A stretch of 64,000 nucleotides of DNA from an uncultured Candidatus Saccharibacteria bacterium (GTDB lineage: Bacteria > Patescibacteriota > Minisyncoccia > Phycocordibacterales > UBA2100): positions 12,775-76,774 of the forward strand of contig CAZPGE010000005.1 in assembly GCA_964586255.1 (NCBI GenBank), in the 5' to 3' direction. The translations under genes and the position numbers were made by a program. Positions 7,486-62,095 of this stretch are shown here, one piece after another. Each line of letters starts with the position of its first letter. The stretch's first letter is position 1. Below the pieces are notes generated by a model. That model worked only from the letters and a program-made list of their open reading frames with translations, had not been told where the DNA came from and made no database searches.

Positions 7486-8205
7486 ATGACAGAACACACA
7501 CAGAAAGATTTTAGTAATCTCTACACACCCATAGCAATCGTGCTTGCTGGCGTCATTATCGGAGCGTTTGCAATGGTGGGAATTTCAAAGACGGGCAGCG
7601 TATCATCAGGCGGAGAGCAGGCTGCGAAAGTCGATATCGCTGACGTGAATATCGAGAACGACCCGTACATCGGCGACAAGGATGCACCGGTCGTCTTGGC
7701 GTACTGGTCCGACTATCAGTGCCCATACTGTAAAGCTGTGGAGATGGGTCACCCGCAAATCCCGACGGAGCCTGCACTCCCAGTGCTCATCAAAGAATAC
7801 GTAGACACAGGCAAGCTCAGAATTGTGTTCAAAGATTACGCATTTCTCAGTGAAGATTCTACGACCGCAGCAATCTGGGGAAGGGCAGTATGGGATCTCT
7901 ATCCGACCAAGTACTTTGCATGGAGAGAAGCTATGTACACTGCGCAAGACGAAGAACATGGTGGCTTCGGCGATGAAGCATCCATATTCGCACTCACCAA
8001 GACAATCACTGGCATCGACGCAAACGCGGTGAAGACGCGCGTGGGCACGAATGCGGAGGCGTACCTCGCGCTCATCGAAGCTGACAAAGCTGAAGGCACG
8101 GGCTTTGGTGTACAGGGCACGCCCGGCTTTATCACCGGCAATACACTTATCCCTGGCGCCGTATCGCCGGAAGAGTTTAAGGCGGTGATAGAGGCACAGC
8201 TGTAA
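7486..8205 (+). CDS. DsbA-family thiol:disulfide oxidoreductase, membrane-anchored
   Basis: N-terminal TM helix; thioredoxin-fold CPYC active site (YQCPYCKA). Confidence 0.8.
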   Translation: MTEHTQKDFSNLYTPIAIVLAGVIIGAFAMVGISKTGSVSSGGEQAAKVDIADVNIENDPYIGDKDAPVVLAYWSDYQCPYCKAVEMGHPQIPTEPALPVLIKEYVDTGKLRIVFKDYAFLSEDSTTAAIWGRAVWDLYPTKYFAWREAMYTAQDEEHGGFGDEASIFALTKTITGIDANAVKTRVGTNAEAYLALIEADKAEGTGFGVQGTPGFITGNTLIPGAVSPEEFKAVIEAQL

Positions 8206-8220
8206 GGAGAAGCTTGGTAG

Positions 8221-8316
8221 TCCTAGTGTTTTCCGTCGCTGTCTGGCCTTGCTAGGCCAGCGCTCGGTCTCGCCGCCGTCGCGGCTGCGAAGACGGAAAA
8301 CACTAGGACTACACGC
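8221..8316 (+). repeat. Structured palindromic repeat element, copy 1 (21-bp outer stem enclosing two hairpins)
   Basis: gtagtcctagtgttttCCGTC-GCTGTCT-GGCCTTGCTAGGCC-AGCGCTCGGTCTC-GCCGCCGTCGCGGC-TGCGAA-GACGGaaaacactaggactac. It is homologous to copy 2 at 51510-51594, and the differences between copies fall so that stem pairing is kept. Confidence 0.7.
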
Positions 8317-8373
8317 GCGGGGGCGCGGGAAATTTGACAATTGGTCCGAAATACGCAAGAATTGAGCCACGGG

Positions 8374-8398
8374 GTGCCCGCACGGGCACTTTTCTTTT
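8374..8398 (+). terminator. Terminator-like hairpin plus U-tract ending 7 nt before the typA start codon (attenuator, or 3' end of an sRNA containing the structured repeat)
   Basis: GTGCCCG cac GGGCAC ttttctttt, then aaacct ATG. Confidence 0.45.
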
Positions 8399-8404
8399 AA
8401 ACCT

Positions 8405-10189
8405 ATGGAAATCAGAAACATCGCCATTATTGCTCACGTCGACCACGGGAAGACCACCCTTACCGACGCTATTTTGCGTCAGACCGGTGTGGCGGAAGAG
8501 GGAGTATCGATGGACAGCAACGCGCTCGAGCAGGAGCGCGGCATCACCATCTACTCAAAGAATGCGGCCGTTTTCTATAAAGACACCAAGATAAACATCG
8601 TCGATACGCCGGGTCACGCCGACTTCGGCTCTGAAGTCGAGCGCGTCCTGCGCTCTATCGATTCCGTGCTCCTCGTCGTCGATGCGCAAGAAGGTCCTAT
8701 GCCGCAGACACGCTTCGTCCTCAAGAAGTCACTCGAGCTCGGAATCCACCCGATTGTCGTCATCAACAAAATCGACAAGCCCGCTGCCGACCCAGCCCGC
8801 TGCGAAGAGCAGGTGCTGGAGCTCTTCCTCGAGCTCGGTGCGTCCGACTCTCAGGCGGATTTCCCAATAGTGTACGCAATCGGTAAGCAGGGCATCGCCA
8901 AGCGCAAACTGACCGACGAGTCGACAGACATGAATCCGCTGCTCGACTGCGTACTCGAGCACGTAAAGCCGGCAAATGCATCAGCAAGCTCGACTGCTGC
9001 ATTTCGCGCACAGCCGTTCAATCTAGGCTACGACAACTTCCTCGGTCGACTTGCTGTCGCGCGTGTCTACGAGGGTACGCTCAAAATTGGCGACACTGTC
9101 TTTGTGAAGAAACCGACGGGTGAGACACGACCAGGCAAAATCACCAAGATGTCGACCTTCAAAGGCTTGCAGAAAATCGACGCTGCCGAAATCATCGCAG
9201 GAGACATCGCGCTTATCGCGGGTCTGCCCGATATATTTATCGGTGAGACGATAACCAACGACTCTTCTGTAGAGCCGCTCCCCGCTATCGCCATCGACGA
9301 ACCAACTATCACGCTGAACTTCCTCGTGAACAATTCTCCGTTTGCCGGTCGAGAAGGCAAATATGTGACGACACGCCAAATCCGCGACCGGCTTGAGAAA
9401 GAACTCGAGATCAACGTCGGTCTTCGTGTAGATTTCTCTGGTGGCGATACCTTTAAAGTTTCGGGTCGCGGCGAACTCCACATCGCCATCTTGCTGGAAA
9501 ACATGCGACGCGAAGGCTACGAAATGCAGGTCTCTCAGCCGCAGGTCATCATCCGCGAAGAAGAAGGGAAGAAACTCGAACCGTTTGAAGAGGTCATCGT
9601 CGACACCCCGAGCGAATACCAGGGTCCCATCATCGAGCGCTTGGGTACGCGCAAATTTGTGATGAAGGACTTGAAAGTACATGAAAACAGCGTGCGCCTG
9701 ACGTTTGACGGGCCTACACGCGGACTCCTCGGCTACAAGAACCAGTTTGTCCTCGACACCAAGGGGGAAGGTATTCTCTCGAGCCGCGTCGTTGGATTCC
9801 AGCCATACGCAGGCGAAATCAAGAAGAAGCAGGTGGGCTCGATGATTTCGATGGCCGCCGGCAAAGCACTCGGATTCTCTCTGTGGAATCTTCAGGAACG
9901 CGGCGTTATCTATATCGGACCAGCCGTAGAAGTGTACGAAGGTCAGGTCATCGGCAATACTTCAAAGGGTGAGGAGATGACCGTCAATCCTACCAAGGGC
10001 AAGCAGCTCACCAACATGCGCTCCAAGGGTACCGACGAGGCGCTCAATCTCGTGCCGCCCTTTGAACTCACCATCGAACGCGGTCTCGAAGTCATGGCTG
10101 AAGATGAGTATCTCGAAATCACACCGCAATCTGTCCGCTTGCGAAAGCAGGCACTCACGGAGAACGACCGCACCAAGTCACGCCGCTAA
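8405..10189 (+). CDS. typA: Translational GTPase TypA/BipA
   Basis: NIAIIAHVDHGKTTL, DTPGHADF and NKID G-domain motifs; about 600 aa with the BipA-type C-terminus. Confidence 0.9.
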   Translation: MEIRNIAIIAHVDHGKTTLTDAILRQTGVAEEGVSMDSNALEQERGITIYSKNAAVFYKDTKINIVDTPGHADFGSEVERVLRSIDSVLLVVDAQEGPMPQTRFVLKKSLELGIHPIVVINKIDKPAADPARCEEQVLELFLELGASDSQADFPIVYAIGKQGIAKRKLTDESTDMNPLLDCVLEHVKPANASASSTAAFRAQPFNLGYDNFLGRLAVARVYEGTLKIGDTVFVKKPTGETRPGKITKMSTFKGLQKIDAAEIIAGDIALIAGLPDIFIGETITNDSSVEPLPAIAIDEPTITLNFLVNNSPFAGREGKYVTTRQIRDRLEKELEINVGLRVDFSGGDTFKVSGRGELHIAILLENMRREGYEMQVSQPQVIIREEEGKKLEPFEEVIVDTPSEYQGPIIERLGTRKFVMKDLKVHENSVRLTFDGPTRGLLGYKNQFVLDTKGEGILSSRVVGFQPYAGEIKKKQVGSMISMAAGKALGFSLWNLQERGVIYIGPAVEVYEGQVIGNTSKGEEMTVNPTKGKQLTNMRSKGTDEALNLVPPFELTIERGLEVMAEDEYLEITPQSVRLRKQALTENDRTKSRR

Positions 10190-11834: not shown

Positions 11835-11852
11835 ACACAGGAGCATACCGAT

Positions 11853-11882
11853 AAAAAACTCCCGAGCTCGCGGGAGTTTTTT
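11853..11882 (+). terminator. Rho-independent terminator
   Basis: aaaaaa CTCCCG agctcg CGGGAG tttttt. Confidence 0.65.
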
Positions 11883-11970
11883 GTGCCAGAGTTATCCCAA
11901 GGTCTTTCGGGACCGTGCGTTTACGCATGCAGAGCGTGATACATTGTGCGTATATCCATAAATTAGTCCT

Positions 11971-12348
11971 ATGCTCCTTGCACAACTCTTAGGCCTCTAC
12001 TTTATTATCGTCGGCGTGATAGTGCTCTATCGACGCAAGTCAATCATGCCTGCGCTTTCGCAGCTCGTCGCGAACCGCGCGCTCCTCCTCGTGATTGCAC
12101 TCGTCGAGATCCTTGCCGGTCTCTCGGTCATCCTCACGTATCCTACGATTGAGGCGAGCGTCGAAGGAGTGATTGCCGTCATCGGGTGGGTACTCGCCAT
12201 CGAAGGTGTGCTGTACCTCGCGATGCCTTTCCGTGTGGTGCAGCGTTTTGTACGCAAATTCAACAACGAGACATGGTACGGCACTGGGGGCGCGATAGCG
12301 GTGCTCCTCGGTGGGTACTTGGCCGGCATCGGTTTTGGCATTCTCTAG
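11971..12348 (+). CDS. Small integral membrane protein (3-4 TM helices), hypothetical
   Basis: Hydrophobic throughout; nested-hairpin terminator downstream. Confidence 0.55.
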   Translation: MLLAQLLGLYFIIVGVIVLYRRKSIMPALSQLVANRALLLVIALVEILAGLSVILTYPTIEASVEGVIAVIGWVLAIEGVLYLAMPFRVVQRFVRKFNNETWYGTGGAIAVLLGGYLAGIGFGIL

Positions 12349-12358
12349 GCCGTTTCCC

Positions 12359-12405
12359 CTGCAAAGCCGCGACTCCGCCTGCCGGCGGACCGGGGCTTTG
12401 CGTTT
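12359..12405 (+). terminator. Rho-independent terminator with nested hairpin
   Basis: GCAAAGCC gcgact CCGCC tgcc GGCGG accgg GGCTTTGC gtttt. Confidence 0.55.
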
Positions 12406-12431
12406 TATGAAATAGTGGCACTATAGAGGCC

Positions 12432-13295
12432 ATGATACAGAAAATAGTGATAGGTGTTATTGGCCTGGTCCTCGTGGGGGCCGCAGCGGGGTACTACTTC
12501 TATGGCGACTCCTTGCCATCGGTAGGAGAGAAGCCACTCAACTCCGCAACTTTTATTTGCGACCAGGAAAAGACTATCAAGGCCGATTTCTTCGAGAAGA
12601 AAGCCGCCCTCACACTGAGTGATGGTCGTACCCTAACGCTTCCTCAGACGATTTCCGCATCTGGCGCTCGGTATGCGACAGAAAACGAAAGCCTCGTCTT
12701 CTGGAATAAAGGCGACACCGCATTCATCACCGAGGGTTCACAGGGCGAGACGTATTCAAACTGCGAAGTAGAAGTGCCGGGCCAGGAACCTCGTTCGAGC
12801 TATGCATCCTCGACGATGGGCATCTCGATAAAATATCCAAAGAGCTATACGCTGAGTGCCGACTACCAGTACTTGGGCTTCCCGAAAAAGCCGATCAGCG
12901 GCGTGAAAGTGCTCATCCCCGCGACGATGGCCACCGGTACCAATCTCTCGAGTTTTGACACCGGCATCTCGGTGGAGCAGCTTCCCCGCGCGCAGAGCTG
13001 CACGGGCGACATCTTTATCGTGGACAACGTGAAAGCGACGAGTGTCACTGAAAACGGCGTCTCGTACTCGGTAGCGACTACGAGCGGAGCGGGTGCGGGC
13101 AATCTGTACGAAGAGATGGTCTACGCACTCTCCGGCTCGAAGCCGTGCACCGCCGTGCGCTACTTTATTCACAGTGCAAACATCGGCAACTTTGGGCCGG
13201 ATGTCGTACGCGAGTTTGACCGTACAGCACTCCTCGCTGCGTTCGACAAAATCCGCGCATCGCTCGTCCTCACCTCTACTTCGACCACTCAGTAG
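12432..13295 (+). CDS. MliC-domain protein (membrane-bound lysozyme inhibitor of C-type lysozyme family) with additional C-terminal domain
   Basis: N-terminal TM helix; FICDQEKTIKADFFEKKAALTLSDGRTLTLPQTISASGARYATENESLVFWNKGDTAFI fits the MliC pattern (conserved C, SASGARY, W.KGD). Confidence 0.6.
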   Translation: MIQKIVIGVIGLVLVGAAAGYYFYGDSLPSVGEKPLNSATFICDQEKTIKADFFEKKAALTLSDGRTLTLPQTISASGARYATENESLVFWNKGDTAFITEGSQGETYSNCEVEVPGQEPRSSYASSTMGISIKYPKSYTLSADYQYLGFPKKPISGVKVLIPATMATGTNLSSFDTGISVEQLPRAQSCTGDIFIVDNVKATSVTENGVSYSVATTSGAGAGNLYEEMVYALSGSKPCTAVRYFIHSANIGNFGPDVVREFDRTALLAAFDKIRASLVLTSTSTTQ

Positions 13296-35029: not shown

Positions 35030-35483
35030 ACGTATGAGTGCGATTGCTCGCAATTATGGAAAAGCGACTCCCGTCATTTTTTCTTTGTGCCCGCCGTTAC
35101 CGACGGGATTTCAAAAAAATGTTTCGGTAGGGAGACTACCGGAGGGTTTCCGCAGATACTATGCGCCGCTTCGCATGTCCGATTGTCGTCCGCCATTCGC
35201 CATCCGGCGAAGGCGGACCGACCCCTCTCCTCGTATCCCCAAATATGGGGCCACACGCTCTAAGAAACACATTCGCTTTCCGTTTTCTAATCACCGTCCC
35301 TGGGACGGCTCTCCACACAATACATCCGGTACGGAGGTGTGCAATGCACCCTTGCGCGATTCTCATGGTGTGCTAATTTCGAGATATGGCCCAGCGACGT
35401 CATATGATGAAGCGTCCTACGACCTCCCCTGAGGCGGCTGTTGCCATGCACGAGTAAACACATCATCCCGAGCAAGACAATCA

Positions 35484-49856: not shown

Positions 49857-51497
49857 ATGGCAAAACAGGTAATTTTCGACCAGGAAGTCAGGCAGCGCCT
49901 CAAGCGAGGTGTCGATATCGTCGCAGGGGCAGTAAAGGTAACGCTCGGTCCCAAGGGCCGAAATGTTGCGCTCTCAAAGTCGTGGGGCGGACCGACAATA
50001 ACCAACGACGGCGTGTCTATCGCCAAAGACATCACACTTGCCGACAAGTTTGAGGACATGGGCGCGTCTATCGTGAAAGAAGTTGCGACCAAGACCAACG
50101 ACAAAGCGGGCGATGGTACTACGACCGCTGTCATCCTCACGCAGGCAATCATCCACGAGGGTATGAAGAAGACCGCGATGGGCGCCAACGCGATGATGAT
50201 TCGCCGCGGCATCGAATCTGCTGCAAAAGATGCGGTGGAAGAGCTCAAGAAGATTGCCAAGCCGGTGAAGGGTAAGAGTGATATCCGCCAGGTAGCGACA
50301 ATCTCGGCCGAGAGCGATGAGCTTGGTAAGACGATTGCAGATATCGTGGAGAAAGTCGGAAAAGACGGTGTTGTCACCGTAGAGGAGTCGCAGTCTTTCG
50401 GCATCGAGAGTGATTTCGTCGAGGGCATGGAGTTCGACAAGGGATATGTCTCGGCATATATGATGACGAACCCTGAGCGCATGGAAGCCGAGGTGAAAGA
50501 CGCTGTGATACTCATCACCGACAAAAAGATTTCCGCGGTCAAAGATATTCTCCCGATTCTTGAGAAAGTAGCGCAGACCGGCAAGAAAGATCTCGTCATC
50601 ATCGCAGACGACGTTGATGGGGAAGCGCTCACCACATTTGTGCTCAACAAGCTCCGCGGCATATTCAACGTACTCGCAGTGAAGGCGCCCGGATACGGCG
50701 ACAGAAAGAAAGAGATTCTCAGCGACATTGCCATCACGGTCGGCGGTCAGGTCATCTCCGATGATCTCGGACTCTCTCTTGAAAAGGCCGAGCTCACGAT
50801 GCTTGGCCGCGCCAATCGCATCGTCGCCACGAAAGACTCGACGACCATCGTCGGGGGCAAGGGAAAGAAAAGCGATATCGAGAAGCGTGTCGCGCAATTG
50901 CAAGTGCAGCTCGAAAATACAGACTCAAAATTCGACAAAGAGAAGTTGCAGGAGAGAATCGCAAAACTCACGGGAGGCGTGGCGGTCATTCGCGTCGGTG
51001 CTGCCACTGAGACAGAGATGAAGTACCTCAAGGACAAAATAGAAGATGCAGTCAATGCGACGAAGGCGGCTATCTCGGAAGGTATCGTACCCGGCGGCGG
51101 AGCGACGCTCGCCAAAGTGTCGGCCAAACTTCAGAAGAATATGGAGAAGGTCTCCAAGGAAAGCGGCGATGAGTTTGCGGCAGGTTACAGCATTCTCGTC
51201 GGCGCACTCACGGCACCGTTTAAACAAATCGTGCGCAACGCGGGACGAGAAGACGAAATGGTCTTGCTCGCAGAAATCTCTGGCAACAACATGAAGGGAT
51301 TCAATGCGGCGACGGAAGAAGTGGTGGACATGATAGAAGCCGGCATCATCGACCCGGTGAAAGTGACCCGCAGTGGTGTGGAAAACGCCGCGTCTGCCGC
51401 AGCGGTACTTCTCACAACTGAGGCTGCGGTCGCAGATATTCCTGAAGAAAAGAAGGATGCAGGACAAGGTGGCATGTCGGGTGGCATGGATATGTAG
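49857..51497 (+). CDS. groEL: Chaperonin GroEL
   Basis: MAKQVIFDQEVR...AGDGTTTA...; C-terminal GGMSGGMDM. Confidence 0.95.
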   Translation: MAKQVIFDQEVRQRLKRGVDIVAGAVKVTLGPKGRNVALSKSWGGPTITNDGVSIAKDITLADKFEDMGASIVKEVATKTNDKAGDGTTTAVILTQAIIHEGMKKTAMGANAMMIRRGIESAAKDAVEELKKIAKPVKGKSDIRQVATISAESDELGKTIADIVEKVGKDGVVTVEESQSFGIESDFVEGMEFDKGYVSAYMMTNPERMEAEVKDAVILITDKKISAVKDILPILEKVAQTGKKDLVIIADDVDGEALTTFVLNKLRGIFNVLAVKAPGYGDRKKEILSDIAITVGGQVISDDLGLSLEKAELTMLGRANRIVATKDSTTIVGGKGKKSDIEKRVAQLQVQLENTDSKFDKEKLQERIAKLTGGVAVIRVGAATETEMKYLKDKIEDAVNATKAAISEGIVPGGGATLAKVSAKLQKNMEKVSKESGDEFAAGYSILVGALTAPFKQIVRNAGREDEMVLLAEISGNNMKGFNAATEEVVDMIEAGIIDPVKVTRSGVENAASAAAVLLTTEAAVADIPEEKKDAGQGGMSGGMDM

Positions 51498-51509
51498 CTC
51501 GCCGAGTGC

Positions 51510-51594
51510 TGATATTTTGCCGTCGCTATCTGGCGCTGCTGCGCCAGCGCTCAGTCTCGGGCCCGTCGGCCCTACGAAGACGGCAAAATATCAC
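51510..51594 (+). repeat. Structured palindromic repeat element, copy 2 (homolog of 8221-8316)
   Basis: tgatattttGCCGTC-GCTATCT-GGCGCTGCTGCGCC-AGCGCTCAGTCTC-GGGCCCGTCGGCCC-TACGAA-GACGGCaaaatatca. Against copy 1, the core CCGTCGCT.TCTGG...CCAGCGCTC.GTCTCG...CGAAGACGG is conserved while both inner hairpins change with pairing preserved. Confidence 0.7.
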
Positions 51595-51676
51595 ACTGCG
51601 GCTCGCAGTCGATAAAGGAGGAGGAAATCAACAGGCGGCGCCCTCATGGGGCGCCGCCTTGGTACAATAGATACAC

Positions 51677-52702
51677 ATGAAGAGGCGCAGGAACATACAG
51701 TCTCCTCTTTCGCGTCCCGGTGTCCCTGTAGTGCTCGCTGTCGCGGCGTTTATGCTACTCGTTGGCACAGCGAGTGTATACGGCGTGCAGTCGCGCGGCT
51801 CCATGCTTGCTGCAGCGGCGGGCGGTGGTCAGTGCGAACCAAAATTTAAACAGTGCATGCAGCAGGATGTGCCGAAGAAAAAAAAGACTGCAGCGCAGTG
51901 CGAACAAGAATTCCAAAAGTGTGTTCTTGTCGACAATAAATGTAAAGACAAGACGGGGATTTCTGGAGGGCAGACCTGCAACAAAGCGCCGGACTGCCAG
52001 ACGCATTGCACTGAATCGGCGACCGGCAAGGGTGCAATACTTGATTGTTGCAAGGGAGGCGCAAAGCATGTGAATTCATGCCCGGATGAAGTAGATGGAA
52101 AGTGTAATCCGCAAAAAAAGGAACTGGGCAAGGAAGGTGAACAGAAAGGAGGGATGCCGGAACTTCCCAAGCCACCTGAATCAAAAGATGGGGGAGGAGG
52201 TCAGCCGCAACAGCAGCCGTGCGGCACAGACTCAAAGACTCCTGGAGTAGCCCCCGCTGAGGGTGGCGAGAAGAGAAAGGATTGCCCACCGGAGACAAAA
52301 TCGGGAGTCTCGGGTTTGTTCGACATGTTTTCTCCGAGCGGAGAGGGGGGCGCATCTTCGCCGAGAGATACGGTATCCTCGGCACTGAGCAAAATTAGCT
52401 CCTTTTTTGGCGGCTCGCAGTCCAGTTCTGAATCCGCTACCAGCAATGAAAACACATCGTCCTCTGGGACCGCAAACACGGGAGGTACAACTGACAATAG
52501 CAGTGTAGTTTCAAGATTGAGTGCACAAGAATCGACGCAAGGCCAGTCTGGGTCGGGCACGGGAGGAAGTACTCAGCAAAACTCTCTTACGACAGGATTT
52601 ACCAATGCGGGGGCAGGGCAGAGCTCGCCACAGTCTACGACGATTCTCAGCTCGGTTGTCACTCGATTGAAATCGGCCCTCTCGTGGCTCAGCGGGCTCT
52701 AA
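51677..52702 (+). CDS. Secreted cysteine-rich protein with Ser/Thr/Gly-rich C-terminal half, hypothetical
   Basis: Signal anchor; about 16 Cys in CEPKFKQCMQQ...CKDK...CNKAPDCQTHC...CCKGG...; TACAAT 8 nt upstream; AT-richer than its surroundings. Confidence 0.55.
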   Translation: MKRRRNIQSPLSRPGVPVVLAVAAFMLLVGTASVYGVQSRGSMLAAAAGGGQCEPKFKQCMQQDVPKKKKTAAQCEQEFQKCVLVDNKCKDKTGISGGQTCNKAPDCQTHCTESATGKGAILDCCKGGAKHVNSCPDEVDGKCNPQKKELGKEGEQKGGMPELPKPPESKDGGGGQPQQQPCGTDSKTPGVAPAEGGEKRKDCPPETKSGVSGLFDMFSPSGEGGASSPRDTVSSALSKISSFFGGSQSSSESATSNENTSSSGTANTGGTTDNSSVVSRLSAQESTQGQSGSGTGGSTQQNSLTTGFTNAGAGQSSPQSTTILSSVVTRLKSALSWLSGL

Positions 52703-52765
52703 GTTTTTCTAAAGCATTCCACATGCGGCGCCACGAATGTGGCGCCGCGCTGGTATGATTGGGCT

Positions 52766-55700
52766 ATGTCGAGCCTCGCAAGGCTATTCTTTCTTGTACT
52801 CATCAGTACATCTTTTTCGCTCCCGGGAAATGTGGCTGCGCTTTCGGCTGAGGCGAATGCGATGTGCAAGCCATACATCGCGGAGTGCCCGTGCAATCAG
52901 GTGCTGAATAAATGGAGGTTCATGCCCGGTCAGCCGAAGTGTAAGGCGGGTGGAGAGAAAAACGGCGCGGGATATAGCAATACACATGCGTGCAAGGTGG
53001 GTGTATGTAAAGACGTCACAAACGAACACGTGACACAGGGAGTGTGCATTGCGGCCGGGAAATGTGAGGGGAAGCTTGCAGACGACAAACCGGTACAAAA
53101 GACTGACGTGCCGGTGAAAGACGGCGATAAGCCGGTGACCGCTGAGCCGCCGCCTCCGCCATCGGTATCAGACACGGGTGATGTGACAGGTGGCATGCCG
53201 CAGAAACCGGAGGTGCCTGAGACGACTGTGCAAGACCCGACAAAGGACCTCCAGGAGACACCTGACACCGAAACCCCCATCCCGTCCGGCTCTGCGAAGA
53301 GTGTCGAAGATCAGTTGAAGGAAGCGGCAGGCGAGCCGAGTCTCTGGGAAAGGTGGTTTGGAGGTGAAACTACGCCGAAGCCGGAGACTCCTGCACAACC
53401 GGATGCTCCAGTGGGGCTCGACGGGCAGCCAGTGCAGACACTCCAGCCCGACGCAGTAGCCGACCCGCAATTGTCAGACACGGGAGTCGTTCAGACTCAG
53501 CCGGGAGAATCTACTCACACATTTGGTCAGCCTGAGGAGACCAAAACTGTCCCCGCGGAAGATGCTACGTGGTGGGGTGCGGTAAAAGATACTGCTTCTA
53601 ATGTTTGGGAGGGGGCGAAAGATATTGCGGCGAACGTGCGCGACACAGTGGCGGGCGCGTTTACATCGGATACACCATCGACTCCAAGTATCGGTGAGAT
53701 AGAGATGCCACCGCCGCCGGCGGAAGTGCCGACGTTAGCAGACACGACAACCGGTGGAACACCAGAGCCGGTACCCGCAGGCGCCAGCGCGGAGCCATCC
53801 GCGACGCAACTCAATACACCGGGAAATGTGGGACCAGTGCCGTATGCAGAAGAGCTTTCGAAACTTGGCTTCGGCAATGACTTGCTGGGAAGCAGGCTCA
53901 AAGAATTGAATGGACTTATTCAAAATGGCAATGATCGGATTGAAGCGGGAAATGCGGACCTCACAACGCGAAAAGAGTCGCTCGATGCGCAGTATGCGCA
54001 GCTGAAGAGCGCGTGTGCTGCGAATACGTGCACACAGTCACAAATAGACACATACAAAGAACGAGCAGCTGCGTACGACCGAGATGCAGCAACGCATAAA
54101 AAACTCGCAGAACAAACGAGGGAATACGTCGACTCCGCGAAAGCGATAGCCTCTGCATTGAACAAGCCAACAGACCTCTCTGCGTATACGGGACGCGTGC
54201 CTGATACACCGGAAAATAAGTTTGTGAGCGATGTATCGCGCGCGGCGCTCGGAGAAATATCGAGGCAAGAGGTGAATGCATTCTGGAACGATACGCCCGC
54301 AAGTGACCTGGTGACAGAGAGATCTCGAATCGCGGGGAATGCTTTTGAGGCGGCGACACACAATGTCACTCCATCACAAGTTGCCGACGCGTTTGGAGAT
54401 TCTGCGCGGCTCTCGGATATTCGGAATCAGACTGCAATTACAGCGGCACAGGAGCAGCTTCGACAAATAGAAACGATTCGTTCGGATACGCCGATTAGCC
54501 AGCTCACACCCGAGCAAGCGGACCTCCTCTATAGAGAGCCGCTCATACGCGAGGAGCTCACTCGACTCGAAAGTGAGTCGCAGTCTCGTGCAGAGAGGAC
54601 TGAGAATATCCAACACGCTCTCCGCAACAGTCAGTATGGAGAGCAGCTGGCGCGCGCGCTGACTACCGAACCAAAAACGCCAGTTGAGCGACTTATACAA
54701 GAGCAGCTCTATTTGAAAGCGGCGGAATTATCGCGCAACAACTTCGCCGCCGAATTGCTTAGGAATACGGAGCAAGCACCGACGGGGCTTACGCCGGAAG
54801 ATTATTACATCCCGGTGGATACCGGGAAAAATGTGTACACGGATGGGGCAGCACAAGCGGATAGGCATATCGGAGAATTGACGGGTGCTCTCAAGCCGTC
54901 ACCGGAAACACAGAGTCTCTTAGACCGCGTAAATGGCAACGAATCATTCGGCCGATATGCTCCGCGAGCGCTCGCTGATGCGACAAATTTCATCGCGGAC
55001 TTGCCCGCAAAAGGATTGGAAGCATTGGGTGTGAACAGCACGGTAGCACATGTGGCCAACGGCATTCTCAACCCGGTCAAATGGGGAGCGGCTGCCTATG
55101 ATGCGTACCTCACGCTTTCGGGCAACCCAAGTACAGAGAGAATGCTCAGCGAGTATGGCATGTCGTCTGGAGAGAGGACATTCGCGCGAGTGATGGATTA
55201 CGCGTCGATAGCTGGTGCGGTCGCCCCATCGCGTGCCCTCATGGGTCTTGGGTCGACCAATGAAATCGGTGTTGTGGCCGAATCGTCGCGCGCATTTACA
55301 TTGAGTGATTCGGTCGCGACGAATGCAGCACGTGTAGAATTGCCGGCGCGAGATTTCGGAGCGGGCGCGTATAAGCATGTCGGCGATACGCCGCTTGGTC
55401 CTGTCTATGCGGCCGACACGCTCCCGTCTGTAGCATCGAGGGTTTCAAACACGGAACGGCAAGCCATCGAAGCGCTTAGCGGCAGGTCGCTCACATCTGC
55501 CGACCGCACGATACTCTCGCAAGTGGGACTTGAAGCGCGGCCATACGGAACCGTACAGGCGGAAATAACGAGAGGTGCGGGCGTGGCGCAGATTACCGAA
55601 AGTGTAAACATCCAGCGAACGGCGCTGGTTAACGGCAATGGGGAAGTAGTGGCTGTCCAAAGCCGCGTCCTCGGCTCTGGCGCGGCAAATTTCGATGCAA

Positions 55701-58700
55701 TGGAAAGATTTGCAATCGTTGCAACTCCGGAAAACACAGGAGTATTCGCATCGCTGCGCCAGCAATTCGACAATTGGTTTGGCCGTTCGGAGCCGACTCC
55801 GAGCGCGCGGCCAACGACGGCAGATGCGACACCGTCTTCCGCTGGTGATACGACACCTTCGGCACGCCCCGCCGATACTCCGGCGCTCCTAGAGTCTCCT
55901 CGAGGCACGACTCCATCTCGTACCGCAGACGTGCCTGATGGTGCGGTGCCGACAACTCCTCGAACAGCTGCAACAGACGGGCAAATCAGCGAAATCGGTC
56001 GTCCACAAAATCTCCCAGATGCACCCGCTGCTCCTCGTGATGTCACGCCAGCGAATACGCCTGATGTCCCTGTGGTCCAGACACCCGACGCGCCTCTTGT
56101 ACCCGACGGAGCGCCAGGAGTGATTCCTGCAGAACCTCTTGCCTCTACTTTGCCGACTACTGGATGGAACCCGAGTGAGTCGCTTGCGAGATTCGCGAAA
56201 GCGAGTGTCGTAGCATTTGGTCTTCTTCACAGCCCAGTGTCTCCGCTTGTCGATACGGCCGTAGCCAGAGGTGTATCAGGCGTGCCGGGCACCGTCTCAG
56301 TAAAAGCCTGTCTTTCAGACTGGACGTGTCTTACGCCGGAGACGGGACTCGGTAAGCGATACGAATTGAACAACGTAGGGTCCAATGGCGGGAACAGGAC
56401 CGCATCTGGCTACCAGCCAGGGCCAAAGGACATGCTCATCGCTTCGCAGACATATCCACTCGGCACATATGGAGAGCTATGCAACGGCGGCAGATGCACG
56501 AAGGTATTTGTAGGCGACACAGGCAATTTCAATCAGGCAAAATATCGCTACGCCAAATTTGACCTGCTCCCACAAGTGTCTTCGGTCGTAGGTCCGACGG
56601 CTGCACAGGGGAGGACGACGATGACGTTTACGCCGTATGGAATAGCAAAGGTAGAAGATGCCGCGGCAATTACGCGAGCAATGAACGCGGGGACTGCATA
56701 CCCCGATGCGGTCGCGCAGATACAGAACAAAGTAATTGCATACGCGCCGGGGAAGAGCGTCGAGCCGACAGCTGTAGCACAGGCTGCGCCGCCCGTCCCG
56801 CAAACACCGACGAGAGTCGCAGATATATCGCCCGCAGTACCCGCAAGCCAGCCAGCGGCAGCGGGGGAGCCGCGGTCTGCTGGGCCTCGTACAGCACTTC
56901 CGGCAGAGCTCGACACTTCGACTTGGACCACGAGGCGCATAGTCGATTCTTTTGTGCCGACGAAGACACCGGTACAGGTCGTCGCTGCAGAGCTCGCGAA
57001 TCCTACGGCAGAAATAAATGCGCTTTCATCGGCGCTCGTCGCAGACGGAATCATCCCTCGAGGCTCGACGGTCACTGCGGCCGCGGATGGGACGACGAAT
57101 GTACGAATTCCGAGCGGGGAGGTGCAGACACTCAAGGTAGTGGTTCCCGAAGCACCTGCCAATCTCAATATCACAGCACCGCGTGTCAGTGTCGGCGAGC
57201 TCAGAAAAGTGTACGCGCAGACAAAGAGTCCCGACATAGGCCGGGTGCTCAGGGCAATTGATGAGCGCGGATTCAATACCGTCCCTGACCGCGCATTTTT
57301 GAACAACGACACTCTCAAACAGCTCGTCGGAGTCTTGCGCGACTACGACAGAATGTTCCCCGGTCAGGTGCCTATCATCAATGAATTGAGCGACACTATC
57401 GGGCGCCCCTTCTCTAGCACTCACACATTTGGTCAAGCTATCGACTTCCGTGCGCGCGAGTGGAGCCCGCAAGTGAAAGCGTTGCAGAATATCTTGCTCT
57501 CACATGGGATGGCGACCCCATATTCGCTCTTCCACGGTACCGGCCCGCACTTGCATGCGGACGGGGGAGAAGTGAAAGCCGCGGATGCCTCGAATCTCAA
57601 CATCTCATACAAGACCGCACCGCAATACGCGCTGCACGATGCAGAGGGTGCGCAGGTGGGGAAACAATTCGCGCTCGGTGGACCGAAAGCTGCGCCAGTA
57701 CCGCCGACAAAGGTGGCAACCGCCCCGCTCCCGAAGCCGTCTCCAGCCCAAGTCGCAATCGGTACATTTGAACCACCGGCGCCGACAAGACCCGGCCCCG
57801 CATTTACTGCGGACAATGTGCCGGCCGAATGGAAGCAGTCGCCAATCACTGTGGCGGAAGCGAAGCCTCCCGTTACAGCCCCTGAGCCTGCGGCAGTGAC
57901 CGTGCCTCCTGCGCCAAAGGCGCCTATCGCTAAACCCGCGCCGATTCAGGCTGCGGAGATTGTTCCTGTCCCGAAGCCACGACCAACTGTATCCTCGACG
58001 AAAGTACCTACAGTCACAAAAGCTGCGACTCGCAATGTTCAGCCGAAAGCAAAGAATCAGGTTGCAGTCACGAAGCAGTTGCCCCCTGTAGATACGCGGT
58101 CAGCCGATGAAATCGCAGCGCAGATGCTCGCACTCAACAACAAAGTAGCTGCACAACTGAAGGTTCCGCCCGCCGAAGCGATGCCGAAGCTTCTAGAGAG
58201 AAATACTAAAATTGGCCAGTCTCTGAAGTCCGTGCAGGCTATAAAGAGCGAGCTCGATGAGCTGGCTAATAAAGTAGTGAGTACGTCTTTGAAGTCTCAG
58301 ACACTCTATGACCAGGGCAACACCGCCGCTTCTAAGGTTGAAGGAAACAAAGTCCAACCTCTTTTCCAGCAACTCGTGGCGCATACAAAGCAACTTTCCA
58401 CGGAAGCTCTTACTGAGGCTGATATTAAAGCGGTGCAAGCAGCGGCCGGTCGTGCTAACTCGGCAGCAAATGTACTCGAGGACACCATTCATCCAGACAA
58501 GGTTGTGGGTATCTATATGAACTCGAAAAATCCCGACGGCACGGCAAAGTTTGCGGACCAAGCTGCATTCGTGAAGTACGTAAAGGGGCTGGCGGGGAAT
58601 TTCCGTGGCAGTGTGGCGCAAGTTTCGTCACCTTTGTCTACCAAGATCAAGTCGTATCAAGTGGAGATTGCTTCCAATGACGCTCTCCTCAATCAATCAA

Positions 58701-61700
58701 AGCAGTTGATGGCCGCAAAACTCAATGCGGATAGCTTGGGTGCCAAGTACGCGCTCGAGCAACTTGAAGGACAGAAAGCGACCGACGAGGCGAATGCGAG
58801 AATAGCGGCCCTCCCTCCTATTGCGGGCCTCGAGGACCTCCTCCAGTCGCCGATTGTTTCGCGAGAAGCTCGTGATGTACCGCTTTCAGAACTTTTTTCC
58901 GAGCTGAAGAATGACGTGTTGGCATTTGCACGGGAAGAGCTCGGCTTGTTTGGCGGTCCGGGTTCTGGGGGACGCACTGTCACCGTAGAGGTCGCGCCAT
59001 CGGTAAAAACTCCTGAAGTCGCCCCGGCGAAAGTTGCCGCGGTTGAAGTGCCCCCTGCTAAGAGTGCTCAAGTGCGGCCGGGGAGTGCCGCACCTACATC
59101 CGCCGTACCATCCTATGTGCCGCGCATCGCGCGATTTGGCACGGAACCTGGCACGGGACCAGTCGTGTATTCTACGCCGGCGAATATTCCTGTATTGCAG
59201 GCGCGCATGAATGTGGCGATTAGGCCTCGCAAGCCTGAAATACAAGCGGGAAGCGGAGGGCAAATATCCCCGACGCCGCGGCTCGAACCACTTCCACCGG
59301 TGCCGAGCGCAGAAGCTGCTGCGCTCGCGAGAGAGCAAGCCTTGCGTAACCCAATCGTAGGTACCGATGATTTTGCGAATTTCCCACGGCAAAAACTCGA
59401 GGGAGAGGATGCACTGCTGCAAGAGGCCGCGATTGCCAAATATGTATCAAACAAAGAGCAATTGCTCGATACGTATGAAGCCCATTTTGGTACGAAGGTC
59501 GTCAATCCCGACCTCGCGAGGCTGCTCTTCAGGGATATGGGCTATACGGGAGTCAATTCGGCCGCAGTACAAAAAGTTGTCGCCGACATGACCGACGAGC
59601 TATGGAAACGTGCGCTCGCAAACAACCCTGAAGATTATGTTGTCCTCTACACAGGTTCGGCTGGCTCGGGTAAATCAAGCTCGATAAACAACGTACTTCC
59701 TGAGATGGAGGCACGGGCCGCCGTGATTATGGATGGCACTCTCTCCAACAAGGTGCTCGCCGAGCAGAGAATTGCGGAAGCGCTCGCGGCAGGGAAGCAA
59801 GTTGAAGTCATTAATGTGTATCGCGATCCAGTAGACGCATGGAACAACGGCGTCATCGCTCGTATGAAAGATGCGCAGTCGATTGATGCTGGAAGAGTCG
59901 TACCCATATCGGTATTCGTAATGGGATATAAGCGTTCGATGGAAGTTGTGAATTCATTGCTTACCAATCCGCGTGAGGGTGTGCATGTGAGTTTGATAGA
60001 AAACGTGATTCCCGGCTCACCGAGTGAGATGAGTCCGGAGCGTTTCCAAAGCATCCGGTACTCATCGAGTATAGAGCGAACGATTCGCAACAACACCGCT
60101 GATCTTCTTGGGCGTGGAGAAATCACACCACGGCAGTACGAGGCAATCACGGGTGCGGAAGCGCCAGGCAAGCTCGCGCTCGTCGCCGACGAGCCGATCG
60201 TGCCGGTGGATAGAGAGATTCCATCTCTTACCGAGCCGGTAGCGACTGCTCCGGAGGGCCCTGTCGCGGCACTTTGGACAGGGGATGGTGTCGAGGAAAG
60301 GCTCGCATGGATACGCGGGGTGCCAGAGAGAGTCACATTAGGTCTGCAAAACTCAGTGAACAAAATTCGTGATCTAATTCCAAGCGTACAAGAGCAGACG
60401 TATCTTCCGCCTGCCGTGACACAAGCGGAGGCCGAGAGCCTTGCGCGGATAGAAGGGGCACTTCTCGATATAGACGCACGATTTCCACGGGAAGTACCCG
60501 ACGATGTGCTCGCCACACTTGAGAGAGAGCTGCAGCAGCAGGTGGCGGGGCTGAGACCATCTGAGATTGACACCATCGCGCAAAAAAGTCTCTGGCAGCG
60601 TACGAAAGAATTCTTCTCACCGAGTAAAGAATCGACCGGTGCCGCGGTGCGAGAGCCCGAGCAGCTCCAACTGCCGCTCGATGAGCCCGTACAATCGGGA
60701 CGACCGCAGGTCGATGCTACTCCCGAGCAGGTGCCAACCTCGCGCCAAGGGGAGCTCTTCCCCGAAGAGCAGCTAGAACTGCAATTCCCGACGACGGGGG
60801 ATTATGTTCAGGCGAATCTGCCGCTCGATGAGCCAGCGCAGCCGACTCGAATTCCTGACACACCAATCCAGCGTGAGCTTCCCCTCGAGTCGCCGCTTAC
60901 GGAGACGCAGCTCGAGCTCCCGCTCACTCAGAGACAGCCCGGTCTGATAGAAAGAATTCGCAATCGTATTGTAGGTACGTCGAAACCATCCGTCACCGAA
61001 CCCGTATCAGGTACAAACTATCGATACAATCCCGTCACCGACCGCTTGGAGCCAATCGCTGTCGCGCCATCGCCGGCATCGACACCGAGCCCGGCGCCAG
61101 CCGCGGAATCACGGTCGCTCACCGTGGGAAGTACCGAGGCATTCGGCGGGGCTCTACCGCCAGCAAGCGGGAAAACGCTCGCAGGGAAATTTGGCAGCGC
61201 TTCGTGGGGCACCGCAAAATTCCTGTGTGGTGGATGGAGGCGTGCAGCGTTTTGTGGCGCCGTGGGGACAGGAGTATATCTGACTGCTTCGGGGTCATCG
61301 GACCCAACATCGCCCGCAGCACCTACTGGGGGCAGTCAGCCAGGCACGGTGAGGCCGACGACTGCAGGTACTCAGACACCTACTGCGCCTTCCGCTCCAG
61401 GCACGACCCCTGCCGGCTCCGTATCGAGTCCAGTGACGCCTATACCAACACCGACTCCGACACCGACTCCGACTCCGACACCCGTCCCAACTCCTACGCC
61501 GACGCCGGCACCAGCTCCAAAACCAGGGAATCAACCAGCTCCTTCTCCTGCGCCGGTTCCGACGCCCGTGCCACTACCGAAGCCAAGACCGGACGGAGCA
61601 CCTGCGCCTGTGCCCGCACCGCAGCCTCAGCCGCAACCTGCTCCGGTCCCATCTCCTGCACCGGCACCGTCACCCGAACAGCCAACAAAGTCTGGCTCAG

Positions 61701-62095
61701 GAAGCTCGGCAGGCAGTATCGGGAGCCTGCTTGGCTCGCTCATGAACTATCTCGGTCTTGGAAACAATAGTCAGCCGAAGCCTGCGCAGCAGCCGACGAC
61801 GCCGACCCGAACTCCGACATCAACATCGACACCGACAACGGTAAAGCCGATTGTGTCGCTTGTGCCAAATCCTGCCCGTGTGAAAGCGGGATCGACCGCA
61901 GTGCTCTGGTGGGCAAGCATCGGTACGACAGAGTGCTCCGTATCGGATTCTGAAGGCACTGTGCTTGTGAAAGGTTCTTCGACTGGAAAGGCCACGACAG
62001 CAGCAATACAAGCAACATCAAAATTCACCGTGACCTGCAAAGCTCGTTCTGGCGAAGACGTCCGCGCGGAGACGACCGTCTCGCTCGCTGAGTAG
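52766..62095 (+). CDS. Giant secreted multidomain protein (about 3110 aa): Cys-rich N-domain, coiled coils, 3D domain, LAS-type Zn-metallopeptidase domain, zeta-toxin/CPT-like P-loop kinase domain, PT-repeat linker, C-terminal Ig-like domain
   Basis: One uninterrupted ORF. Signal peptide MSSLARLFFLVLISTSFSLPGNVAA starts at 52766, with TATGAT 6 nt upstream. The 3D-domain motif YGELCNGGRCTKVFVGDTGNF...FDLL is near 56.45 kb. The LAS motif STHTFGQAIDF (H-x6-D) ...HGTGPHLHADGG (H-x-H) is near 57.4-57.56 kb. Walker A VLYTGSAGSGKSS then AVIMDGTL is near 59.65 kb. (PT)n runs 61.44-61.52 kb. Confidence 0.8.
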   Translation: MSSLARLFFLVLISTSFSLPGNVAALSAEANAMCKPYIAECPCNQVLNKWRFMPGQPKCKAGGEKNGAGYSNTHACKVGVCKDVTNEHVTQGVCIAAGKCEGKLADDKPVQKTDVPVKDGDKPVTAEPPPPPSVSDTGDVTGGMPQKPEVPETTVQDPTKDLQETPDTETPIPSGSAKSVEDQLKEAAGEPSLWERWFGGETTPKPETPAQPDAPVGLDGQPVQTLQPDAVADPQLSDTGVVQTQPGESTHTFGQPEETKTVPAEDATWWGAVKDTASNVWEGAKDIAANVRDTVAGAFTSDTPSTPSIGEIEMPPPPAEVPTLADTTTGGTPEPVPAGASAEPSATQLNTPGNVGPVPYAEELSKLGFGNDLLGSRLKELNGLIQNGNDRIEAGNADLTTRKESLDAQYAQLKSACAANTCTQSQIDTYKERAAAYDRDAATHKKLAEQTREYVDSAKAIASALNKPTDLSAYTGRVPDTPENKFVSDVSRAALGEISRQEVNAFWNDTPASDLVTERSRIAGNAFEAATHNVTPSQVADAFGDSARLSDIRNQTAITAAQEQLRQIETIRSDTPISQLTPEQADLLYREPLIREELTRLESESQSRAERTENIQHALRNSQYGEQLARALTTEPKTPVERLIQEQLYLKAAELSRNNFAAELLRNTEQAPTGLTPEDYYIPVDTGKNVYTDGAAQADRHIGELTGALKPSPETQSLLDRVNGNESFGRYAPRALADATNFIADLPAKGLEALGVNSTVAHVANGILNPVKWGAAAYDAYLTLSGNPSTERMLSEYGMSSGERTFARVMDYASIAGAVAPSRALMGLGSTNEIGVVAESSRAFTLSDSVATNAARVELPARDFGAGAYKHVGDTPLGPVYAADTLPSVASRVSNTERQAIEALSGRSLTSADRTILSQVGLEARPYGTVQAEITRGAGVAQITESVNIQRTALVNGNGEVVAVQSRVLGSGAANFDAMERFAIVATPENTGVFASLRQQFDNWFGRSEPTPSARPTTADATPSSAGDTTPSARPADTPALLESPRGTTPSRTADVPDGAVPTTPRTAATDGQISEIGRPQNLPDAPAAPRDVTPANTPDVPVVQTPDAPLVPDGAPGVIPAEPLASTLPTTGWNPSESLARFAKASVVAFGLLHSPVSPLVDTAVARGVSGVPGTVSVKACLSDWTCLTPETGLGKRYELNNVGSNGGNRTASGYQPGPKDMLIASQTYPLGTYGELCNGGRCTKVFVGDTGNFNQAKYRYAKFDLLPQVSSVVGPTAAQGRTTMTFTPYGIAKVEDAAAITRAMNAGTAYPDAVAQIQNKVIAYAPGKSVEPTAVAQAAPPVPQTPTRVADISPAVPASQPAAAGEPRSAGPRTALPAELDTSTWTTRRIVDSFVPTKTPVQVVAAELANPTAEINALSSALVADGIIPRGSTVTAAADGTTNVRIPSGEVQTLKVVVPEAPANLNITAPRVSVGELRKVYAQTKSPDIGRVLRAIDERGFNTVPDRAFLNNDTLKQLVGVLRDYDRMFPGQVPIINELSDTIGRPFSSTHTFGQAIDFRAREWSPQVKALQNILLSHGMATPYSLFHGTGPHLHADGGEVKAADASNLNISYKTAPQYALHDAEGAQVGKQFALGGPKAAPVPPTKVATAPLPKPSPAQVAIGTFEPPAPTRPGPAFTADNVPAEWKQSPITVAEAKPPVTAPEPAAVTVPPAPKAPIAKPAPIQAAEIVPVPKPRPTVSSTKVPTVTKAATRNVQPKAKNQVAVTKQLPPVDTRSADEIAAQMLALNNKVAAQLKVPPAEAMPKLLERNTKIGQSLKSVQAIKSELDELANKVVSTSLKSQTLYDQGNTAASKVEGNKVQPLFQQLVAHTKQLSTEALTEADIKAVQAAAGRANSAANVLEDTIHPDKVVGIYMNSKNPDGTAKFADQAAFVKYVKGLAGNFRGSVAQVSSPLSTKIKSYQVEIASNDALLNQSKQLMAAKLNADSLGAKYALEQLEGQKATDEANARIAALPPIAGLEDLLQSPIVSREARDVPLSELFSELKNDVLAFAREELGLFGGPGSGGRTVTVEVAPSVKTPEVAPAKVAAVEVPPAKSAQVRPGSAAPTSAVPSYVPRIARFGTEPGTGPVVYSTPANIPVLQARMNVAIRPRKPEIQAGSGGQISPTPRLEPLPPVPSAEAAALAREQALRNPIVGTDDFANFPRQKLEGEDALLQEAAIAKYVSNKEQLLDTYEAHFGTKVVNPDLARLLFRDMGYTGVNSAAVQKVVADMTDELWKRALANNPEDYVVLYTGSAGSGKSSSINNVLPEMEARAAVIMDGTLSNKVLAEQRIAEALAAGKQVEVINVYRDPVDAWNNGVIARMKDAQSIDAGRVVPISVFVMGYKRSMEVVNSLLTNPREGVHVSLIENVIPGSPSEMSPERFQSIRYSSSIERTIRNNTADLLGRGEITPRQYEAITGAEAPGKLALVADEPIVPVDREIPSLTEPVATAPEGPVAALWTGDGVEERLAWIRGVPERVTLGLQNSVNKIRDLIPSVQEQTYLPPAVTQAEAESLARIEGALLDIDARFPREVPDDVLATLERELQQQVAGLRPSEIDTIAQKSLWQRTKEFFSPSKESTGAAVREPEQLQLPLDEPVQSGRPQVDATPEQVPTSRQGELFPEEQLELQFPTTGDYVQANLPLDEPAQPTRIPDTPIQRELPLESPLTETQLELPLTQRQPGLIERIRNRIVGTSKPSVTEPVSGTNYRYNPVTDRLEPIAVAPSPASTPSPAPAAESRSLTVGSTEAFGGALPPASGKTLAGKFGSASWGTAKFLCGGWRRAAFCGAVGTGVYLTASGSSDPTSPAAPTGGSQPGTVRPTTAGTQTPTAPSAPGTTPAGSVSSPVTPIPTPTPTPTPTPTPVPTPTPTPAPAPKPGNQPAPSPAPVPTPVPLPKPRPDGAPAPVPAPQPQPQPAPVPSPAPAPSPEQPTKSGSGSSAGSIGSLLGSLMNYLGLGNNSQPKPAQQPTTPTRTPTSTSTPTTVKPIVSLVPNPARVKAGSTAVLWWASIGTTECSVSDSEGTVLVKGSSTGKATTAAIQATSKFTVTCKARSGEDVRAETTVSLAE

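Follow-up and report, generated by a model that had tools for sequence, protein, structure and literature searches.

A multi-copy palindromic repeat of Paceibacteria and Kaiserbacteria with a strand-specific three-way-junction fold

The spacer between dsbA and typA on contig CAZPGE010000005.1 of an uncultured Candidatus Saccharibacteria bacterium contains a palindromic repeat that recurs in many copies in Paceibacteria and Kaiserbacteria, members of the candidate phyla radiation (CPR), and is non-coding and non-autonomous. We analyzed a 64,000-nt stretch of this contig (positions 12,775 to 76,774; hereafter the window), which holds a second copy downstream of groEL; the contig was also recovered from the public run ERR3094292. 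The family has multiplied within genomes, is present or absent at orthologous sites, and was found inverted at one site. Its structural constraint is strand-specific, lies on the minus strand of the window, and is independent of host transcription. We consider it probable that the element is a non-autonomous repeat resembling the Rickettsia palindromic elements (RPEs), the single-strand fold of which would be recognized by a trans-acting factor.

An earlier note on this DNA had described nested hairpins inside a perfect 21-bp stem immediately after dsbA and a homologous copy after groEL. Both are present with small shifts in coordinates: the outer stem of copy 1 begins 4 nt before the position given there, and copy 2 follows the groEL stop codon (TAG, 51495-51497) with a stem of 18 bp and one bulged C (Table 1). 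The outer stem and both inner stems have diverged in sequence between the two copies, whereas their pairing is retained. The shared core pattern had two exact occurrences in the window against 0.00 expected from shuffled sequences, and the fold z-scores relative to shuffles were -7.1 and -5.7 on the plus strand and -8.9 and -6.8 on the minus strand for copies 1 and 2, respectively. A full covariance-model (CM) search with the filters off detected no third copy in the window.

Each member of the family forms one long hairpin of approximately 100-170 nt. The outer stem, P1, has a median of 22 pairs (10th-90th percentile, 17-30) and is essentially free in sequence; it closes a three-way junction bearing two short arms, P2 (7 bp with the loop AGCA) and P3. 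The latter is longer than the earlier reader saw: its irregular helix (P3a) is interrupted by one G.A pair, one bulged A, and a U.G/U.U position and is capped by a 4-5-bp hairpin with the loop GACG (P3b). Approximately 30 bases, located in the two loops and in the junction strands (GCG and AYAGCGA), are nearly invariant, whereas the arm columns are about 40-60% conserved and only pair; the conserved bases are central in the palindrome. The view that pairing rather than sequence is conserved was borne out in an alignment of 109 distinct copies, in which 93.1% of the cells were paired and changes on both sides were found in 30 of 38 pairs. The covariation score was 0.639, compared with 0.162 in shuffles (none of 500 reached 0.639) and at most 0.114 when the partners were slid. 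P2 alone (columns 60-66/71-77) was 99.1% paired, with double changes in five of its seven pairs. A mutual-information (MI) scan revealed that columns 26 and 55 covary (C-G in 55 copies and G-C in 45; MI 0.88); the string previously read as a linker is therefore not single-stranded but partly paired to bases on the 5' side of the core. No conserved motif was found beyond the outer stem across the family. Copies often have a purine-rich internal loop (tandem G.A) and a further stem outside P1, and in the subfamilies that continue into such a stem its sequence again only covaries; in a large subfamily P1 is flanked at its base by CGAG-type words (5'-AGCGAG / CGAGCG-3'), which are also readable as a tandem G.A extension of the stem.

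The earlier note had read the plus strand; the ratio of G.U to A.C positions places the constraint on the reverse complement. In the plus-strand orientation, the P1 mismatches comprised 10 G.U and 35 A.C. On the strand described by the model (hereafter the model strand; in the window, the minus strand, which runs antisense to both dsbA and groEL), P1 had 47 isolated G.U against 12 isolated A.C positions (p = 5e-6), counting only those flanked by Watson-Crick pairs and each event once. The G.U:A.C counts were 50:9 for intergenic copies, 7:1 for intragenic antisense copies, and 5:2 for intragenic sense copies, and the same bias was seen in spacers without any gene reading into the model strand. 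Since the bias is equal in all classes of context, the asymmetry is a property of the element rather than of local transcription. Tandem G.A at the P1 base and the U.G in P3a likewise make sense on the model strand only. For 91 of 142 copies, the model strand was the one richer in C locally (p = 0.001). Mutation bias was judged unlikely to lie behind the G.U excess; because the model strand is on average C-rich and antisense, deamination would give the opposite asymmetry.

Searching relatives for the core, as had been proposed, turned up many more copies. A scan for the exact core pattern in one genome per species yielded 46 loci in 20 assemblies, all of them CPR and mostly Candidatus Kaiserbacteria or Paceibacterota; a looser core pattern matched at least 120 metagenome loci and no viral contig. 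Many loci came from groundwater of the Hainich wells. A CM made from 41 copies and run over 1.26 Mb of collected sequence identified 169 distinct copies in Kaiserbacteria and Paceibacteria assemblies; the E-values from this home-made model are rough. The core exists in two variants, A (both window copies) and B (the majority of the metagenome set). At least 17 distinct copies reside in a single metagenome-assembled genome (MAG), JACRFI01, in which a subfamily with a common P1 and loop motif represents a within-genome burst. Three degenerate copies were also seen among the comparison loci, which are numbered with the prefix L (L066 8385-8482, L066 7209-7308, and L116 835-934); one has a decayed core, and in the other two a different sequence stands in the 5' half of the core (AAGUACCCUUGG). 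These, together with a 156-nt insert at the UvrB site of L156 that the CM did not recognize, may be old, decaying members.

Known families did not account for the element. Rfam 15 at the gathering threshold, a check that had been suggested for the window, returned only glmS and no family for the element, and local Rfam E-value scans of both window copies and one variant-B locus gave chance-level matches or none. A tRNA/tmRNA scan found none, and searches of the available literature on repeats, non-coding RNAs, and ribozymes of CPR, Patescibacteria, Kaiserbacteria, and Parcubacteria gave no account of such an element. In a comparison by eye, the junction strands did not match the cores of the hammerhead, hairpin, twister-sister, pistol, or hatchet ribozymes; efficient self-cleavage would also be incompatible with the sense copies that lie inside essential genes.

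Comparison of orthologous sites showed that a given copy may be present in one genome and absent from another. In the dsbA-typA spacer the element is present in the window and in L011, whereas L031 and L090 are empty and their spacers measure only 66 nt. Five more filled/empty sets were found (L078/L111, L028/L067, L021 and L033/L051, L041/L006, and L126:1842), the last being filled in one genome and empty in four orthologues. Flank identity in the filled/empty pairs was 67-88%, and even in the best pair (88%) the junctions and any duplication are ambiguous. The empty site of L111 (approximately 535-616) has a small A/T palindrome centered on the stop codon (CAAAAAATCTAGTTTTTG), and the element of L078 (5164-5262) occupies the center of this palindrome, which hints that insertion may prefer palindromic or hairpin targets.

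Whereas 123 of the 169 copies are intergenic, 46 (27%) lie in frame inside long open reading frames (ORFs), 24 in the sense and 22 in the antisense orientation relative to the model strand. Pfam domains were recognized on both sides of the insert in UvrD (two copies), UvrB, RecG, LeuRS, UvrC, IleRS, Tgt, and TsaD; the L126:1842 insert lies in a UvrD/PcrA helicase ORF that holds a second copy in the same frame. In the host frame, sense copies always read ...GVSQADGPRGSAPRARGDSDP... and antisense copies always ...GSLSPRARGALPLGSSACETP...; one frame is used per orientation, although the variant-B core is free of stop codons in all six frames. A profile of the insert peptide run against 5.8 billion proteins gave two matches, from only 48 word-index candidates. 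L107 and L073 have colinear flanks around their TsaD inserts (identity 0.80 and 0.78), but the elements are 0.89 identical when one is reverse-complemented but only 0.73 identical directly; the whole element has therefore been turned round in place. At UvrD site 2 the core identity was 0.83 as the reverse complement and 0.62 directly. The opposite orientations there may reflect inversion or, as the stems differ, an independent insertion in the other orientation. Besides the inserts, some CPR aminoacyl-tRNA synthetases carry extra domains: LeuRS of L121 (3903-7370, minus) contains NUDIX at residues 567-684, and IleRS of L075 (6571-10302, minus) contains a histidine-phosphatase domain at residues 575-734; the orthologous IleRS of L100 (6517-8976, plus) has a similar extra stretch, the domain identity coming from the L075 scan only.

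Since it occurs in spacers and also in frame within essential genes, the element is not a dedicated small RNA (sRNA) of the dsbA locus. On the RPE-like reading that we prefer, what is under constraint would be the element itself in single-stranded form, as DNA or as a transcript of the element. The three-way-junction core would act as the recognition module for a trans-acting factor responsible for copying, moving, or maintaining the element, and the stems would need pairing only. Both window copies would then be passengers in the dsbA-typA spacer and in the spacer downstream of groEL. The dsbA and groEL mRNAs are predicted by folding to bear the complementary hairpin in their 3' ends (-73.6 and -63.2 kcal/mol, respectively); by analogy with REP and Correia elements, such a hairpin may, as a side effect, shield the RNA or make it a target of RNase III, and an incidental 3'-end effect on these two mRNAs is possible.

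Several observations weigh against this reading. Transposase, RAYT, reverse transcriptase, and integrase genes were not enriched beside the copies (approximately 8-15 kb per locus), and clustering of the flanking ORFs of the window and L001-L127 returned orthologous housekeeping genes only. Conserved terminal inverted repeats (TIRs) are absent, and target duplication is at best TA, in one subfamily. Orthologous copies in different species keep their pairing by compensated changes in P1, P2, and P3b, including a whole base-pair deletion (L036/L014, L023/L027, and L072/L015). In intragenic copies, the core half that was not used for ascertainment is 0.86-0.91 identical, compared with 0.69-0.77 for the flanking coding DNA; the arms at these sites are 0.61-0.77 identical. 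Such maintenance in place is not expected of a purely selfish repeat that is dead on arrival; it calls for ongoing selection, gene conversion between copies, or repair of quasi-palindromes templated by the hairpin. Most copies were ascertained by exact core patterns, which makes that half of the core look more invariant than it is, although conservation was borne out by the other half and by the by-catch copies. Gene contexts came from a crude longest-ORF caller, and all comparison sequences are MAG or metagenome contigs. Because selection, conversion, and repair are inseparable here, we keep two rivals, a host RNA and a chromosomal DNA site, under consideration.

As an observation on copy arrangement, inverted pairs of copies approximately 730-800 bp apart were found in L087 (11702-12694) and L001 (68-1000). 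The L087 pair encloses a SAM-methyltransferase-like ORF (11840-12583); the L001 pair has no clear ORF.

A bolder proposal is that the near-invariant junction core might be the working part of an undescribed single-strand-specific CPR system, either as the substrate of a new, hairpin-dependent type of mobility or maintenance enzyme or as an RNA or ribonucleoprotein (RNP) module, even a catalytic one. The core would then be preserved in place at all loci, those within essential genes and those in either orientation included. We regard this proposal as rather doubtful.

It is somewhat less likely still that the family consists of host-beneficial structured RNAs. Each copy would then give a model-strand RNA of approximately 100-130 nt, cut out of longer transcripts at the 20-bp stem, e.g., by RNase III, and acting as a multi-copy sRNA or RNP component through binding of a protein or ligand at its junction. 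Such an RNA fits the strong covariation of the three helices, the near invariance of bases in the junction and loops, the tolerance of G.U and tandem G.A on one strand only, and the constrained length of P1, as well as compensated evolution at orthologous sites and a core better conserved than its flanks. However, no promoter is directed into the element: sigma70-type promoters pointing into it from either side were no commoner than the outward controls. The 60 intergenic copies with close neighbors on both sides occur in all four gene configurations (24, 17, 13, and 6, in the model-strand frame, only the 6 lying between divergent genes), and about half of the intergenic loci have no neighboring gene reading into the model strand; the strand bias is unchanged even where read-through can transcribe only the other strand. 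Furthermore, processing of the sense copies within essential genes would destroy the mRNA, and the presence/absence polymorphism and the inversion suit a mobile repeat better. The flanking genes are housekeeping genes (valS, rsmA, typA/lepA, prfA-rpmE, rnc, thrS, and groEL).

A chromosomal site acting at the DNA level is improbable. Such a site would be an extruded hairpin or cruciform bound by a host protein of replication, repair, or chromosome organization, with its orientation tied to replication. The transcription-independent strand asymmetry, the C-richness of the model strand, the toleration and maintenance of copies within genes, and the flip of orientation at one site are all consistent with it. 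On the other hand, the skew bias is modest (64%) and confounded with gene orientation, and local 10-kb skew is a poor proxy for the direction of replication. The presence/absence of copies at orthologous sites indicates that single copies are dispensable, and a partner protein is not known.

Even less probable is a classical miniature inverted-repeat transposable element (MITE), i.e., a deletion derivative of an insertion sequence (IS) with a DDE transposase (e.g., of the IS630 type), with conserved TIRs and a TA duplication. One subfamily ends TAGAGCATGTTTGAAA...TTTCAAACATGCTCTA, compatible with TA-flanked ends, one genome shows a burst, and empty and filled sites exist. The terminal sequences, however, are not conserved and only pair: they vary between subfamilies and even within JACRFI01, where a compensated variant, TAGTGCTTG/CAAGCACTA, was seen. 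The conserved part is the center of the palindrome and not its ends, cut-and-paste of double-stranded DNA does not predict a strand-specific G.U bias, and no parent IS was seen among the flanking genes in the range given above.

Finally, a cis-acting plus-strand structure in the 3' untranslated region (UTR) of dsbA and groEL, or an sRNA of approximately 175 nt ending at the hairpin 8371-8392, as the earlier note had suggested, is very unlikely: both window copies follow a plus-strand stop codon, 41 of the 60 intergenic loci have a gene ending toward the same side of the element, and the plus-strand fold is very stable, but the structural constraint is on the opposite strand and the family is not bound to 3' UTRs, its copies occurring in every intergenic configuration and, in either orientation, in frame inside genes. 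No intrinsic terminator arising from the long outer stem was reported on either strand, and no U tract follows P1. The terminator scan of copy 1 gave 8371-8392 as its sole site, and that of copy 2 gave a terminator-like hairpin of groEL downstream of the element (51633-51659) and a 6-bp flank hairpin (51595-51609, minus) with its T tail inside the P1 arm.

The hairpin 8371-8392 itself lies behind a plus-strand sigma70-like promoter at 8334-8362 (TTGACA-17-AAGAAT), and this GC hairpin and a T run follow the promoter immediately, approximately 12 nt before the typA start codon. In front of typA, the window, L011, and L031 all retain a TTGAC(A/T/G)-17-(AAGAAT/CACAAT) promoter together with the hairpin's first part; the T run is also present in L031, and the L011 stretch ends inside the hairpin. 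Since promoter and hairpin are kept in L031, which lacks the element, the hairpin belongs to the typA leader, and typA may have its 5' leader or an attenuator in the segment 8334-8392. A third, GC-rich hairpin directly 3' of copy 1 (CGCGCGGGGGCGCG, 8314-8327), which had been counted as part of the unit, is specific to the window and missing from the orthologous L011 copy and from other copies. With the typA promoter in between and this third hairpin not conserved, the idea of a 175-nt sRNA fails.

Among known repeats, the closest in behavior are the RPEs, which are small palindromic repeats found between genes and in frame inside conserved protein genes (PMC10969869, PMC2229807); Correia, ERIC, and REPIN-type repeats show a looser resemblance. 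Like these, the present elements are palindromes of approximately 100-150 bp that fold as a long stem-loop, combine intergenic copies with in-frame fusions in functional conserved proteins that give a characteristic peptide, have no known transposase, and share copies between species at orthologous sites. They differ in host phylum (CPR instead of Rickettsia), the likeness claimed being one of behavior rather than of membership in a described RPE family. They also differ in their near-invariant three-way junction at the center of a palindrome with arms free in sequence, strand-specific constraint, use of both orientations in frame, and inversion in place.

A REP/BIME-like element (repetitive extragenic palindrome/bacterial interspersed mosaic element) came nearest among the candidates listed in the earlier note. 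REP/REPIN elements presumably function as hairpins formed by one single strand, and they too are dispersed, non-autonomous hairpin repeats that lie mostly at gene 3' ends and persist vertically. However, REPs have an extragenic location and a conserved sequence, including a 5' GTAG-type word, whereas the arms of the present elements are not conserved and more than a quarter of the copies are intragenic; REP/REPIN also has the transposase RAYT (Y1 HUH), typically with the repeats on both sides of its gene, and no such gene was seen among the flanking genes of the window and L001-L127. Function that depends on the fold of one DNA strand is likewise a property of attC sites and of IS200/IS605 ends. 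In attC sites, structure is conserved far above sequence and the sites lie just after stop codons, but the present elements have no R'/R'' core sites, cassette arrays, or integrase, and the terminal branched structure is the most conserved part here and the variable part in attC. No attC-type R''/R' words (GTTRRRY) flank the stems, and the neighbors are housekeeping genes. Unlike IS200/IS605 ends, they do not seem to have a fixed target word or a pair of subterminal hairpins; the CGAG-type words beside P1 may be a stem extension, the word GCTCGCT was not enriched in the window, and no TnpA was seen beside the copies.

Correia/NEMIS elements of Neisseria and ERIC sequences of enterobacteria, both bacterial MITEs, are repeats of 100-200 bp with long-hairpin transcripts that affect neighboring mRNAs via RNase III or RNase E. 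A number of their copies lie within genes, and Correia elements can invert in place (PMC10969869, PMC2229807). These families have conserved TIRs and TA duplications, and Correia elements have promoters and an integration host factor (IHF) site, whereas the present family has no conserved ends or promoters and its branched core is without a counterpart there. The CIR repeats of Caulobacter and Brucella are approximately 110 bp long, with a conserved two-arm secondary structure and a conserved exposed motif (PMC2229807). They share the size, the phylogenetically conserved branched fold, and the exposed motif with the present family; however, CIRs are strictly intergenic, have stops in all frames and a GANTC methylation site, and lack a long closing stem.

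Table 1. Coordinates of the two copies in the window and of the structural parts of copy 1 (both copies, and P1, P2, P3, and the junction strands of copy 1, are assigned to the minus strand)
Feature	Position	Strand	Evidence and remarks
Copy 1, whole element, variant A	8217-8312	minus (constrained strand)	CM match 8215-8314 (minus), 108.8 bits, E 7e-26
Copy 1, P1 arm adjoining the dsbA stop codon	8217-8237		gtagtcctagtgttttccgtc; perfect 21 bp with 8292-8312; fold; P1 columns covary family-wide
Copy 1, P1, second arm	8292-8312		Sequence, fold, family covariation
Copy 1, hairpin P2, 7 bp	8243-8260		CTGGCCT-TGCT-AGGCCAG, inside the P1 stem; loop AGCA on minus, TGCT on plus
Copy 1, string joining both inner hairpins	8261-8271		CGCTCGGTCTC
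Copy 1, arm P3 (irregular helix P3a and hairpin P3b)	8264-8293		Coordinates mapped by hand
Copy 1, P3a pairs			U25-A56, C26-G55, U29-A52, C30-G51, G31.A50, C32-G49; bulged A33
Copy 1, hairpin P3b (second inner hairpin)	8272-8285		GCCGC-CGTC-GCGGC; loop GACG; P3b pairs covary
Copy 1, junction strand GCG	8261-8263		Invariant G57 C58 G59 (column counts)
Copy 1, junction strand A-Y-A-G-C-G-A	8236-8242		Columns 78-84, all invariant except Y79; in variant A, 8236-8237 can alternatively lengthen P1
Copy 2, variant A	approximately 51501-51603		CM match 51502-51600 (minus), 95.3 bits; sequence, fold

The ORFs identified around the two copies encode a DsbA-like thioredoxin (7486-8205), TypA/BipA (8405-10189), and GroEL (49857-51497). 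Elsewhere in the window, a glmS ribozyme/riboswitch at 35065-35270 (minus) matched RF00234 with 65.5 bits, against a gathering score of 37, and contains a 67-nt loop insertion. Downstream of groEL lies an ORF of 3118 aa (52739-62095, plus), preceded by an ORF (51677-52702) with no Pfam match.

The family is best filed as new among CPR repeats but of a kind already known, the RPE-like repeats; the new features are the branched core, the strand asymmetry, and the in-frame use of both orientations. CPR genomes are tiny, and the family makes up a visible share of their intergenic DNA and is written in frame into essential enzymes. For gene calling, this means that inserts lengthen proteins and that copies could pass for small RNA genes or terminators; for the study of protein evolution, the same site can be compared with an insert, without an insert, and with an inverted insert. 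To our knowledge, the mode of spread of RPEs has remained unknown since 2000. The family bears on the origin of Rickettsia-type palindromic elements, and its sharply defined core and clear strand asymmetry, which set it apart from the Rickettsia elements, lead to testable predictions on a single-stranded intermediate and a trans-acting partner. If the core does prove to be the working part of a single-strand-specific system, it would provide the first mechanistic handle on the spread of RPE-like "protein-coding palindromes".

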